Positions 48,023-51,445 of a stretch of DNA of 64,000 bases are shown here, piece by piece (position 1 is the first letter of the stretch; the number at the start of each line of letters is the position of its first letter). This stretch comes from Escherichia phage EF1-1, in sequence record PQ571289, one strand, 5' to 3'. A program made the translations under genes and the position numbers. The notes under the pieces were generated by a model. The model saw only the letters and a list, made by a program, of their open reading frames with translations. It was not told the origin of the DNA and did no database searches.

Positions 48023-48301
48023 TTAAAATGGTTCGTTAGTCTCCATCATATATTCTGCTTCTAGTTCTTCCATGTGCTTTCTAAATTGGAAAGCAATTTC
48101 TGCTACAGTTACATTTAAATCTTTTTCAAAAACTTCTGTAGAGCCTTCATAAAAACGAATACCGTCAATTAAAAGCCCTCCGTGGTAATCCCAATCACTT
48201 TCACGAGAAAGCGGGTTAGGCTCTTCATAATAGTAATCCACCTCCACGACTAAGGCTTTCCCGTTACGAGTGGTGTATTCAAAATCAAAAGTGTTAATCA
48301 T
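48023..48301 (-). CDS. Hypothetical protein
   Basis: 92 aa ORF with ATGA overlap to the downstream gene. Confidence 0.3.
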   Translation of the reverse strand: MINTFDFEYTTRNGKALVVEVDYYYEEPNPLSRESDWDYHGGLLIDGIRFYEGSTEVFEKDLNVTVAEIAFQFRKHMEELEAEYMMETNEPF

Positions 48302-49245
48302 TATAGCTCCTCAAATAAAAGTCTACGACGCTCATTCAACACATCAATGTGATAATGAGTCCTGACATACTTAGCTAATGCTAATCCTTTCTCCATGCAA
48401 ACATCGGGAGCACTTAATAAGTATTCCGTAATATCTTTCCACTCGGAAGGTGTTTCAGCAAAGAATAACAGATCTTTAAACTCTTGTGTATGATAATTCT
48501 CACGAGGAGAACAGATCAAAGGTAAACCCTTAGCACCTGCCTCAAGAATTTTAAGATTGCTTTTTGCATTATTAAACACGTTATCAATCAATGGCGCAAG
48601 ACTGATTTGATGACCATCGTAAGATTCCATGTAGTTGGCATATGGTCTTACACCTTCATAAACACAAGTTGGTGCTACATTTTCTCTGATTACAGACCAT
48701 TCACGACTACTTAAAACTTCAGAATCCCTACGAAAACCACATATTGTAAGATCTTTACCAAAATCGGGCAAGATAGCCAAGTCTTGTTTATGTGTTTCAC
48801 TTCCAGCCCAGACTAATGGGGTTTTGGAGTAGCGATCACGGGTCAACACAAATTGACCTTCATCGTAAGGAAGTCCATTAGGGATTATGTGCACATTATC
48901 ATTGTATTGTGAAAGTTCAACTTGCAAAGCAGGTGTCGTAGTTGTAACAAGATCGCTGTGCTCTAAAAACCATTTTAAATGTTCACGAATGCCTGATTCA
49001 AAAATACCTTCTAACATGTGTCCTTTTGGAATAACTAAAGAGTCATCCAAATCCATAACCATTTTAAAACCTAGGTTTTTAAGGGCTAAAAAGCCCTCTT
49101 TACCTTTTGTTGGCACCCCGTTAAAAACGAAAACGTTGTGTTTAGGTTGTGAAGAGAACTGCCTTGAGTAAGGCAGCACTACCCTATGGAAATCGCAGAC
49201 ACTATAATTGATTCCGTTACGATTGTCAAGAATTATTTGTCCCAT
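48301..49245 (-). CDS. Glycosyltransferase, GT-B-like (paralog 1)
   Basis: 'IPNGLPYD' and C-terminal 'NLKILEAGAKGLPLICS' resemble GT-B signatures; about 35-40 % identical to the adjacent ORF. Confidence 0.45.
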   Translation of the reverse strand: MGQIILDNRNGINYSVCDFHRVVLPYSRQFSSQPKHNVFVFNGVPTKGKEGFLALKNLGFKMVMDLDDSLVIPKGHMLEGIFESGIREHLKWFLEHSDLVTTTTPALQVELSQYNDNVHIIPNGLPYDEGQFVLTRDRYSKTPLVWAGSETHKQDLAILPDFGKDLTICGFRRDSEVLSSREWSVIRENVAPTCVYEGVRPYANYMESYDGHQISLAPLIDNVFNNAKSNLKILEAGAKGLPLICSPRENYHTQEFKDLLFFAETPSEWKDITEYLLSAPDVCMEKGLALAKYVRTHYHIDVLNERRRLLFEEL

Positions 49246-49252
49246 ACTTCAC

Positions 49253-50200
49253 CTACAGACTTTCAATAACCTGGCGTCGCAACTCGTTTGCATCTGCCAG
49301 ATTATAATGTGTTCGAACATGTTCAGCCAAGAACAAGCCACGATCTTCCCGATAGTTTGGATTGCGAAGAAGCTTAACAATTTCGTAATGCCATTCTGCT
49401 TTATTCTCTGCGTAAGCAACAGCGCGAGCATCTACAGGGTTAAAATAAGGTAATACCTTAGAACAAACAATCGGAATACCCTTTGCTCCAGCTTCTAGGA
49501 TTTTGAGATTACTTTTACAATTATTAAAATCATTATCTACCAAAGGAGCTATAGCAATAGCATGACTTTCGTAAACACTCATGTAATTATCTAAATCTTT
49601 TACAGCAGCTTTATATTTAGCATTTGGTAAATTTCTGCGAATCTTAATCCACTCTTGTCCCGTGATGCTCTGCGATGCTTCATATCCCGCAATAGTAAGA
49701 AGTTCATCATCGAAAGTATTAGAGACTAGTCGTAAATCGGGTTCGTGACTAGCACCGCCAGCCCATACCACAGGGGTACCGGATGAACGATCATTTGACA
49801 AAGTGAATTGTCCACTATCAAAAGGAAGTGCATTTCGGATCACAACAACATTCCTATTTAAGTGACGGATCTTATATGCCAAATATTCTGTAGTCACAAT
49901 AACCACATCAGCAAGCTTAACCATAGCTACAATAGCATGAGTGTTTGACTCGTATAGACTTGCTAAATAATGTTCTGGATTAAGTTGGTAGAAATCATCT
50001 AAATCTACAACAATCTTAACACCTTGACGTTTCAAAGATAAAACGTATTCTGCACCTTTAGAGTGGATACGGTTAAACACAACAACATCTTTCTTAGGTT
50101 GAAGATTATGGTTGTTAAATGGCATAACAATACGATGATAGTCACAACCGCTGTGAGGTTTTGCATCAATTTTTAGTTTAGACCATTTTTTATTTGACAT
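49253..50200 (-). CDS. Glycosyltransferase, GT-B-like (paralog 2)
   Basis: 'IRNALPFD', 'NLKILEAGAKGIPIVCS'; tandem paralog of 48301..49245. Confidence 0.45.
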   Translation of the reverse strand: MSNKKWSKLKIDAKPHSGCDYHRIVMPFNNHNLQPKKDVVVFNRIHSKGAEYVLSLKRQGVKIVVDLDDFYQLNPEHYLASLYESNTHAIVAMVKLADVVIVTTEYLAYKIRHLNRNVVVIRNALPFDSGQFTLSNDRSSGTPVVWAGGASHEPDLRLVSNTFDDELLTIAGYEASQSITGQEWIKIRRNLPNAKYKAAVKDLDNYMSVYESHAIAIAPLVDNDFNNCKSNLKILEAGAKGIPIVCSKVLPYFNPVDARAVAYAENKAEWHYEIVKLLRNPNYREDRGLFLAEHVRTHYNLADANELRRQVIESL

Positions 50201-50873
50201 GTGCTAGTGCCTCCTCATAGGAAATTCGGATTTTCCCATTTTTAATATCCTCTAAAGATGCTTTATATTCTTCCCAGTTAATCCCAATAGCAGCTTCTTT
50301 CTCTTCTTTTGTCAGATTAGCAAAAGGCATAGGATTGTTTCCAAAAACATCGTCTGGGTGGATATAAGCCATGATACGAAGTGGACAAGGTGTTGCCTGA
50401 ATACCATGATTCAAACCAGCAGCTTTCAAACGGTGTCCCCATTCAGCATCTTCAAAACCATAACCGTGAGTGTAAGGGCGGAAATAACCCATCTTCTCAA
50501 CAACGGCACGAGAATACATTGCAAATTGACACATTGCAAGTTCCCAGAGAATAACTTCTCCTTTGCTTCCAACAACTTTATCTTTGAAATACTCCGGCAT
50601 ACCAAAGAAATCCCATCCTCCAGAAACAGCCTGATCTACAAAGTATGTTTCCCATCCTTCCATGACTGGGTAGCAATCATCGTCAAAAATAAACCAATAA
50701 TCATAACCTTCTTCATAAAACTGGTGCATAAGTTCATTCCTGGCATAAGCTACACCTTTACGATCTGGATCGTTTAATACTCGAAAATCTGCACGTGGAT
50801 CTGTTACAAGGTAGTCTTTAAGTGGACGGACACCTACAGTGATAACACCCACTCCGATTTTAATATTTTCCAT
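50190..50873 (-). CDS. Glycosyltransferase, GT-A-like
   Basis: 'FIFDDDCYP' DxD-type motif and 'YGFEDAEWGHR'. Confidence 0.45.
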   Translation of the reverse strand: MENIKIGVGVITVGVRPLKDYLVTDPRADFRVLNDPDRKGVAYARNELMHQFYEEGYDYWFIFDDDCYPVMEGWETYFVDQAVSGGWDFFGMPEYFKDKVVGSKGEVILWELAMCQFAMYSRAVVEKMGYFRPYTHGYGFEDAEWGHRLKAAGLNHGIQATPCPLRIMAYIHPDDVFGNNPMPFANLTKEEKEAAIGINWEEYKASLEDIKNGKIRISYEEALAHVK

Positions 50874-50881
50874 TATCTCTC

Positions 50882-51445
50882 CTAAATAGTTTTACTGTGA
50901 TCGTGACAGTGTAATAAATGATGTATAGACCGTTGAGGATTTGTTTGACCTAATCTGTAAATGTGGAACAGATACATTCCCCGCATCAATCCTAACCTTT
51001 TTCCTTTTTCGTGTAAAGTGCGAGAGAAAATTAAGTCAAATTGAATAGATTTTTCTTCGAAAGGAATTTCATTCCACAGTGATTTCCTAAAAAGCAAAAA
51101 GAAACCTGCCAGAGGTGTTCCGAAAGGAACTTCTTCAACACTCACTTTATGATATTCTCTTGCAATCTTAGCATATTCTATATGGTTTAGAATATCTGGA
51201 TCATCGTTAATTTGGTTAGAGAAAAGCTGATAACCACTGCCTAACCTGTTACAAGTTGCACCTATTACATCAAAAGGCGGGTTTGACATAACAAGCTCTT
51301 CAAGCATAGATGGTTGATCAGGTAGGAGGAACATTGTATCGGTATCTCTTAAACACACCCAACTATCATCTGGAAGAACGGCAATGGCTTCATTGATAGC
51401 CTTGCCGATATTTCCTGTCAGATAGGGAGTAATATAATAAATCAT
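50882..51445 (-). CDS. Putative nucleotide-sugar transferase (GT-A-like)
   Basis: 'GNIGKAINEA' and 'RDTDTMF' (DxD-like); weaker call. Confidence 0.3.
   Translation of the reverse strand: MIYYITPYLTGNIGKAINEAIAVLPDDSWVCLRDTDTMFLLPDQPSMLEELVMSNPPFDVIGATCNRLGSGYQLFSNQINDDPDILNHIEYAKIAREYHKVSVEEVPFGTPLAGFFLLFRKSLWNEIPFEEKSIQFDLIFSRTLHEKGKRLGLMRGMYLFHIYRLGQTNPQRSIHHLLHCHDHSKTI

Follow-up and report, generated by a model that had tools for sequence, protein, structure and literature searches.

What do four glycosyltransferase genes in a row contribute to a coliphage, and onto what are the sugars transferred? The question is posed by Escherichia phage EF1-1 (PQ571289), a phAPEC8-like Phapecoctavirus (Stephanstirmvirinae), of which one stretch of 64,000 nt (the window) was analysed; the genome of phAPEC8 (NC_020079) served as the reference for genes lying beyond it. 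Exactly four minus-strand open reading frames (ORFs) fill positions 48301-51445 and are designated here, from the first gene of the array to the last, ORF4, GT-A3, GT-B2 and GT-B1. The label 'glycosyltransferase' (GT) is already public for all four genes in RefSeq, in phAPEC8 and its relatives. New in this work are a portable, ancient core of the array, its apparent co-travel with a phage-encoded rhamnose pathway, the conclusion that it probably does not modify DNA, and a group of bacterial cousins linked to adhesins. We tentatively propose that the array represents the first virion-glycosylation system of phages infecting Gram-negative bacteria: a GT-A + GT-B module, both widespread and portable (IMG/VR contains at least 569 GT-B relatives), that would place a rhamnose-containing glycan on capsid, tail or fibre proteins, and that would be kin to a putative bacterial system glycosylating invasin-type adhesins. 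We consider this reading possible rather than probable.

Identity of the encoded enzymes

An earlier note on this DNA had described an array of four tandem glycosyltransferases, comprising two GT-B paralogues and two GT-A-like enzymes. Its coordinates proved exact, all the motifs that it quoted are found in the translations (HIIPNGLPYD, KILEAGAKG[LI]P..CS, FIFDDDCYP, YGFEDAEW and RDTDTMF), and the division into two GT-B and two GT-A proteins was borne out by motifs and by models of GT-B2 and ORF4. Profile hidden Markov model searches gave very strong matches in PHROGs and marginal ones in Pfam. In the former, phrog_7162 was found twice (E=1e-145 and 1e-148), phrog_2456 matched GT-A3 (E=1.4e-78) and phrog_14179 was the third family (E=8e-113); all three are labelled glycosyltransferase, so that the strength of these matches is decisive while repeating the existing label. 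In Pfam, GT-B1 reached 25.2 bits against Glyco_trans_1_2 (PF13524; cut-off 25), GT-B2 scored 20.4 and 22.8 bits, under the respective cut-offs, and ORF4 had no match at all. The best match of GT-A3 was TAGT (PF20691; 19.4 bits, cut-off 27.5, residues 32-68 only), with Glycos_transf_2 likewise below its threshold (14.4 bits, cut-off 23.3). Across the GT-A3 family the matches are all sub-threshold, to TAGT in 16 of 17 members, to GT2 in 10 and to Glyco_transf_7C in 9, and those to TAGT are confined to some 40 residues surrounding the DxD motif. The pattern R..FDDD..YGxED is invariant in this family (F63-D64-D65-D66 and E141-D142 in GT-A3) and is typical of GT2-like GT-A enzymes.

Profile searches of the PDB with all three GT families produced chance-level matches only, and the fold assignment therefore rests on AlphaFold2 models, which gave GT folds for both proteins modelled. 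GT-B2 was predicted as two Rossmann-like domains with an interdomain cleft, a GT4-like GT-B fold whose structural neighbours include GtfA, Gtf3 and SdgB. The model of ORF4 (predicted local distance difference test score 91) has structural matches among GT-A enzymes only, and its D34xD36 is invariant. GT-B1 and GT-B2 share 41% identity (E=1e-77), and neither has lost any residue that is invariant in the family alignment; no similarity was detectable between the sequences of ORF4 and GT-A3. A check for the E-x7-E motif showed that E236 (in LEAGAKG) is invariant and that the position eight residues upstream is occupied by a nearly invariant cysteine, Cys228, not by glutamate. None of the four proteins contains a hydrophobic segment resembling a transmembrane helix (the highest 19-residue Kyte-Doolittle mean, 1.65, lies in the Rossmann core of GT-B2), and all four are predicted to be soluble. 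Three of them are acidic, with isoelectric points of 5.0-6.0; charge and hydrophobicity are rated here as weak evidence. Taken together, we are highly confident that the four genes encode glycosyltransferases.

A portable cassette near late and structural genes

GT-B relatives from IMG/VR and GTDB were followed in 91 loci, dereplicated to 41 GT-B lineages. A GT-A3-like gene lies within three genes of GT-B in 27 of the 41 lineages, an ORF4-like gene is present in 10 and a hexapeptide acetyltransferase (Pfam) in 11; in Luteibacter, a methyltransferase is found as an extra sugar-tailoring enzyme. Replication genes lie upstream of the cassette in census loci, and a large terminase gene, recognised in 19 lineages, lies downstream at a median distance of six genes. 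Apparent bacterial homologues of GT-B2 turned out to be mostly prophage genes. In Pseudomonas-type prophages and viral contigs (L005/L017, L010, L011, L015 and L016), a GT-A3 homologue of 214-215 aa (43% identity where tested) directly precedes GT-B, and the pair sits between the lysis genes and terS/terL, opening the late operon. A prophage of Enterobacter huaxiensis has the order endolysin, ORF4-like gene (44% identity), short-chain dehydrogenase/reductase (SDR) of the epimerase/dehydratase type, GT-A3-like gene, GT-B, HNH, terS, terL, the pair again opening the late operon; over the Pseudomonas and Enterobacter prophages, the GT-A3 homologues adjoining GT-B are 38-43% identical to GT-A3. 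The full trio was found within the morphogenesis module of a prophage of Paraburkholderia sp. J67, where it is preceded by TerL, protease, capsid, portal and a collagen-like protein of 581 aa that contains 131 G-X-Y repeats, and followed by the genes for a neck protein (HK97-gp10-like), tail terminator, major tail protein (with Ig-like domains of the Big_1/Invasin_D3/PKD kinds) and tape measure. The pair found in Pseudomonas sp. LP_7_YM stands immediately before the tail sheath gene.

Only one GT-B is present in some relatives, namely contig L013 and three Klebsiella phages (KP2025, KP13-26 and 05F01), which indicates that the second GT-B of the array is a lineage-specific duplication. The ancient portable core thus consists of ORF4, GT-A3 and one GT-B. 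Along the array, from ORF4 to GT-B1, neighbouring genes lie 8 nt apart, overlap by 11 nt and lie 7 nt apart, in that order; since they nearly abut or overlap, and since GT-A3-like genes and GT-B recur together, we have moderately high confidence that the four enzymes serve one shared pathway. All Phapecoctaviruses and phi92-like phages that were examined have the four-GT array, and almost all have a full dTDP-rhamnose pathway; the phi92-like phages of the BASEL collection carry orthologues of RmlC and of the four GTs, the latter with 66-75% identity.

Co-occurrence with a rhamnose pathway

In phAPEC8, gp166-169 form a complete RmlB-RmlA-RmlC-RmlD block, located about 70 kb from the array, beyond the window, and adjoining glutaredoxin and ribonucleotide reductase genes. 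The Pfam matches are strong (NTP_transferase, a 4,6-dehydratase-type SDR, dTDP_sugar_isom and RmlD_sub_bind). The pathway has been noted in these phages before, together with a speculation on DNA glycosylation (PMC7552041). Searches by tblastn with RmlC, ORF4, GT-A3 and GT-B2 returned near-identical numbers of records with the same breakdown by organism (about 105 Escherichia, 8-10 Klebsiella and few others), an agreement of counts and not a record-by-record matching. The groups matched were Phapecoctavirus, Justusliebigvirus/phi92, phiWec179-like phages and Klebsiella relatives, with Citrobacter Tr1 among the matches listed for GT-A3 and RmlC only. Annotation notes suggest that GTs and Rml are both absent from rV5, PVP-SE1 and Felix O1. 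The cassette thus appears to travel with phage RmlABCD within Stephanstirmvirinae. An informative case is phage ESCO37, which keeps all four GTs though RmlA and RmlB, reported as the only Rml proteins that it lacks, have been lost. The enterobacterial common antigen (ECA) pathway of E. coli makes dTDP-4-keto-6-deoxyglucose, i.e. it performs the first two Rml steps. The loss of just these steps in ESCO37, together with their supply by the host, suggests that dTDP-L-rhamnose is the product which the phage needs. We have moderate confidence in rhamnose as a predicted donor of the GTs.

Bacterial and phage relatives outside the clade

Three bacterial loci carry a lone GT-B homologue with 41-45% identity: those of Burkholderia dolosa (L018), Trinickia symbiotica (L021) and Trinickia sp. 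LjRoot230 (L022). The gene content is conserved among these Burkholderiaceae: an inverse-autotransporter invasin of about 1100 aa (invasin/intimin-type) and a 555-571-aa protein come before the GT-B homologue, with a 474-479-aa protein encoded on the opposite strand and, in both Trinickia, a further protein of about 250 aa after it. The unnamed proteins look secreted and have no Pfam matches. These loci may represent a new adhesin-glycosylation system, to judge from gene content. Beyond its own clade, the nearest phage relatives of GT-A3 are GTs of cluster-F mycobacteriophages, of the Che8 gp108 type: tblastn with GT-A3 matched 352 mycobacteriophage records, with E-values of about 1e-8 to cluster-F phages.

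A working model

We propose that the four soluble, cytoplasmic GTs of this operon-like cassette would act in sequence and build a short oligosaccharide, the recently duplicated GT-B probably adding or branching one further sugar. The phage would make, or top up, dTDP-L-rhamnose with its own RmlA/B/C/D and would draw the remaining donors from the nucleotide sugars of the host. One or more phage structural proteins would be the acceptors and would receive the sugars in the cytoplasm, either ahead of assembly or in the course of it. The particles set free would then carry a rhamnose-containing glycan, which could serve for shielding, stability or altered adhesion. The acceptor is the least certain element. 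A virion protein is suggested by the recurrence of the cassette at or inside the packaging-morphogenesis module of unrelated prophages, and by the remote kinship of GT-A3 to the GTs of cluster-F mycobacteriophages, a group in which glycosylation of capsid and tail tube is known; a protein acceptor in general is suggested by the GT-B homologues in bacterial adhesin loci. Together with the case against DNA presented below, these arguments lead us to favour one or more virion proteins as acceptor, a conclusion that we would still place somewhat short of probable. Virion proteins had been the last of the options listed in the earlier note, and it is the option that fits the comparative data best. 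As a speculation, the two tail fibres encoded in the window (Table 1) may be candidate acceptors of the glycan.

Several observations weigh against a virion target. The array in EF1-1 lies between lysin and primase and not by packaging or structural genes. The similarity of GT-A3 to the N-terminal domain of Che8 gp108 amounts to 24% identity (E=3e-4, with a database of four proteins) and covers a generic GT-A core, and one source names gp110, not gp108, as essential (PMC12363180). No obvious Ser/Thr-rich C-terminal tails were seen on the capsid, decoration, sheath and tube proteins. Other signals point to DNA. The array lies among replication genes and the rml block among genes of nucleotide metabolism, and it was genomic placement that first led others to propose DNA glycosylation (PMC7552041). 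The position ahead of the terminase in prophages is one where late DNA-modification genes also occur, 7 of the 41 lineages have a ParB-methyltransferase gene at a distance of about three genes, and the most consistent Pfam match of GT-A3, sub-threshold as it is, is to a family of TET-associated DNA glycosyltransferases. We regard these signals as real but weak.

A class of collagen-like acceptors was also considered, on account of the Paraburkholderia prophage and of the window's own collagen-repeat tail fibre; collagen-like ORFs were found near GT-B in only 3 of 97 loci, so that no general class of acceptor emerged, and the idea is kept as a lead.

Alternative targets

If DNA were the target, the GTs would put rhamnose or other sugars on a modified base, sparsely or at specific sequences, and thereby evade nucleases. 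All known routes to such hypermodification need a hydroxylated base, supplied either by a ThyA homologue (5-hydroxymethylcytosine, 5-hydroxymethyluracil or the recently described 5-hydroxycytosine) or by a C5-methyltransferase with TET/5mYOX. The genes of characterised DNA-glycosylation pathways are usually clustered, and the DNA becomes resistant to restriction. The only thymidylate-synthase-like gene of phAPEC8, gp156, is of the ThyX type, without a ThyA match in the PDB, and is common to rV5 and PVP-SE1, in whose annotation the GTs have no counterpart. The earlier note had proposed looking for a hydroxymethyl-pyrimidine pathway elsewhere in the genome; Pfam searches of 30 further phAPEC8 and window proteins, which cover part of the hypothetical proteins of the genome, revealed no TET/JBP, C5-methyltransferase or ThyA domains. 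Prophage cassettes are likewise without a base-modifying neighbour. Furthermore, phi92-like phages have been described as 'exceptionally susceptible' to restriction-modification in spite of their dTDP-sugar machinery, as the authors themselves remark, and these hypersensitive phages hold orthologues of all four GTs and of Rml (PMC8594841). In another collection HincII cut all phages but three; two of the three belong to Dhakavirus and Tequatrovirus, so that the cut set includes the Phapecoctavirus and Justusliebigvirus isolates, whose DNA is thus cleaved by this enzyme (PMC10269720). The acidity of three of the GTs and the shortness of the TAGT matches point in the same direction, and we consider modification of DNA improbable. 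Should DNA be the target after all, this would be a new kind of hypermodification, one that leaves common restriction enzymes unhindered and proceeds without a known base-activating enzyme.

Remodelling of the host envelope is unlikely, yet it deserves more credit than DNA. The GTs would act at the cytoplasmic face of the membrane on lipid-linked or lipid A-core intermediates and would thereby alter the lipopolysaccharide (LPS) core, ECA or another surface glycan, with the result that superinfection is blocked or progeny are kept from sticking to debris. The folds and a rhamnose donor would suit the synthesis of an LPS core or lipid-linked glycan, and ECA and LPS core are the receptors of these phages (PMC8594841). 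Such a role is harder to reconcile with the lack, in the window and in the annotation, of transmembrane segments, flippase, polymerase or Gtr-type partner, and with prophage cassettes that lie in the late lytic operon and not by the integrase or attachment site, the location from which genes of lysogenic conversion are expressed. Replacement of a surface glycan within one lytic cycle would presumably be slow, and neither the homologues in adhesin loci nor the placement in structural modules would be explained. Of the earlier suggestion that DNA or envelope modification is plausible, the DNA half is thus disfavoured by the lack of a base-activating enzyme among the proteins scanned and by the restriction-sensitive relatives, and classical envelope conversion is a poor fit for soluble enzymes of a late operon. 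Least probable in our opinion is the modification of a host protein or small molecule, such as a rhamnosylated host factor or defence signal, for takeover of the cell or for disarming its defences. A series of three or four GTs implies that the product is an oligosaccharide, and enzymes of takeover or anti-defence do not usually make one; there was no match to a known anti-defence family, a dedicated PADLOC scan not having been made; and the late-operon position in prophages speaks against an early takeover role.

It should be noted that several annotations in phAPEC8 that touch on nucleotide and DNA metabolism deserve comment in their own right. The product of gp156 (713-1711 of contig L004, beyond the window) is a divergent protein of 332 aa, of which residues 22-174 only match Pfam Thy1 (33 bits); it has no sequence match in the PDB, and a thymidylate synthase activity is putative. 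The RefSeq label 'DNA methyltransferase' on gp194, gp177 and gp117 is supported by Pfam in none of the three, and gp117 (window 3925-4404) is an XkdF-like prohead protease (PF14550, E=1e-11). These labels are probably propagated misannotations.

Genomic context in the window

Features of the window bearing on the array are collected in Table 1. The earlier note had placed the array between replication genes and a methyltransferase on one side and a lysin on the other, and this was confirmed by ORFs, Pfam and annotation; the downstream genes also include a small ORF, listed between primase/helicase and methyltransferase, and three further small ORFs lie upstream of the array beside the lysin gene. 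More than 60 deposited genomes match a 4.7-kb stretch around the array with 98-99% identity. The start of the 92-aa ORF overlaps the stop of GT-B1 by 1 nt; contig L013 has an 89-aa ORF in the matching place after its single GT-B, and the prophage cassettes have no counterpart. Whether this ORF belongs to the cassette is uncertain.

Table 1. Features of the EF1-1 window discussed in the text (transcription sense is that of the array)
Feature	Position	Strand	Length	Remarks
ORF4, minimal GT-A-fold glycosyltransferase	50882-51445	-	187 aa	First gene of the array
GT-A3, GT-A-type (GT2/TAGT-like) glycosyltransferase	50190-50873	-	227 aa	
GT-B2, GT4-like GT-B-fold glycosyltransferase	49253-50200	-	315 aa	
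GT-B1, lineage-specific duplicate paralogous to GT-B2	48301-49245	-	314 aa	
Small conserved ORF	48023-48301	-	92 aa	phrog_4240 (E=6e-33)
Primase/helicase	46232-48010			Downstream of the array
N6-adenine-type methyltransferase	44904-45698			Downstream of the array; GNPPFG motif, without Pfam match
DNA polymerase	41572-44904	-		Downstream of the array
SleB-like lysin	52147-52668			Upstream of the array
TerD	52768-53370	-		Ter-type cluster
vWA-TerF-like protein	53881-54675	-		Ter-type cluster
Collagen-repeat tail fibre	33636-35660	+		Four G-X-Y runs including GTNGTNGTNGTN; Pfam Collagen (46 bits), Tail_spike_N
Fibre with RCC1-like repeats and Big_2 Ig-like domain	35702-38374	+		

A scan for terminators found none inside the array, and promoter-like matches were too many for expression timing to be assigned. 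A perfect sigma-70 promoter (12/12 consensus; TTGACA, 16 nt, TG-TATAAT) was seen at 53697-53724 (-), within the minus-strand ORF 53636-53884, about 2.3 kb upstream of the array and also upstream of an 89-aa ORF and TerD. No terminator-like site was found between this promoter and the GT genes, and the array may accordingly be read by unmodified host RNA polymerase, as far as such motifs can tell.

Three further observations concern the surroundings of the array. The DNA polymerase I ORF contains a 245-aa in-frame insertion (residues 583-827; window 42424-43158, -), which starts with Cys, ends in TGN followed by Cys and includes a LAGLIDADG-like stretch, FLEGFLIADGYW. On its flanks, 583 and 283 residues match the uninterrupted polymerase of phAPEC8 with 100% identity. 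The insertion has the appearance of an intein carrying a homing endonuclease, which this isolate has and the type phage lacks. The lysin gene is adjoined by a Ter-type ('tellurite-resistance') cluster extending from 52768 to about 62000 (-; phAPEC8 gp047-gp066), which besides the proteins of Table 1 encodes TelA, a SprT-like protease, a TerC membrane protein, a ComF-like phosphoribosyltransferase, two HAD hydrolases and a phosphatase. It resembles the Ter-linked sets proposed to make a nucleoside-like metabolite; contig L013 retains TelA, the vWA-TerF-like protein and TerD. Near-identical genomes (98-99% in matches to 48000-52700) are found under the names Acinetobacter phage vB_AbaM_ABPW7 and Klebsiella phage ZCKP1, and orthologues with 70-97% protein identity occur in entries submitted as Campylobacter phages (A145, B15 and others) or as Pseudomonas phage PsgM04F. 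Either these phages have extraordinary host ranges, or the host assignments are wrong or the cultures were contaminated with coliphages.

Implications

Both Phapecoctaviruses and phi92-like phages belong to the coliphages of broad host range that are isolated most often, and they serve as components of therapy cocktails. If the virion is the target of the array, virion glycosylation would extend beyond actinobacteriophages and giant viruses, and many therapeutic coliphages would carry a sugar coat affecting immune recognition, stability and adsorption, with a bearing on pharmacokinetics, serum neutralisation and receptor binding. Our literature search on Phapecoctavirus and Stephanstirmvirinae found no functional study of these GTs. 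In mycobacteriophages, glycosylation of the virion is reported to protect particles from antibody binding and to lower neutralising antibodies (PMC12363180). The portable GT-A + GT-B core and its adhesin-linked cousins provide a concrete, testable family.

Comparison with known glycosylation systems

DNA glycosyltransferases of phages, such as T4 AGT and BGT, the TAGT/5mYOX-associated enzymes and the arabinosyl-5-hydroxycytosine GTs (HY126), likewise have GT-A and GT-B folds, and those of T-even phages and metagenomes are sometimes found several in series, with sugar-tailoring enzymes and near replication or terminase genes, as here. They differ in accompanying or needing a ThyA homologue or a C5-methyltransferase with TET, none of which was found in the proteins scanned, and in the restriction resistance that they confer on DNA, whereas in this clade the DNA can be cleaved and is sensitive to restriction-modification (PMC8594841, PMC10269720). 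The supplement of the New England Biolabs preprint does not include these phages. Serotype conversion by GtrA/GtrB and a type-specific Gtr is also phage-encoded glycosylation, in that case of a glycan. However, Gtr proteins are embedded in the membrane, use undecaprenyl-phosphate-glucose in the periplasm, are encoded by int/att and are expressed in lysogens, none of which applies to the array: no transmembrane-like segment was seen in its proteins, the phage is virulent and the prophage homologues lie in late operons.

Other parallels are found where proteins are glycosylated. Virion glycosylation in the mycobacteriophages Che8, Corndog and Myrna was reportedly described by Freeman et al. in 2023. 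These phages (Che8 gp108-110, Corndog gp38, Myrna) resemble EF1-1 in having a cluster of two to three soluble phage GTs, and the Che8 cluster, which lies directly before an HNH gene at the right genome end, resembles the cassettes of Enterobacter and Pseudomonas prophages. Comparison of GT-A3 with Che8 gp109 and gp110 gave no match. Che8 is without a GT-B partner, gp108 consisting of a GT-A domain and a C-terminal domain, whereas the phAPEC8-type array has GT-B; it also differs from EF1-1 in that the latter has a Gram-negative host, carries its array among replication genes and possesses rhamnose-pathway genes. Cytoplasmic GTs dedicated to adhesins are known from the pairs TibC/TibA, Aah/AIDA-I, HMW1C/HMW1 and GtfA-GtfB/SRRP, in which a GT-B enzyme is encoded beside its surface protein, as are the GT-B2 homologues of Burkholderia and Trinickia. 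These families show no kinship to GT-B2 at the level of sequence (no matches in the PDB profile search), with GtfA, Gtf3 and SdgB as neighbours in fold. The chlorovirus PBCV-1, finally, encodes GTs (A064R and others) including rhamnosyltransferases, along with nucleotide-sugar enzymes, and its capsid is glycosylated in the cytoplasm without the host machinery; the likeness to the phages described here is that the virus itself supplies both the glycosyltransferases and the synthesis of the nucleotide sugar.

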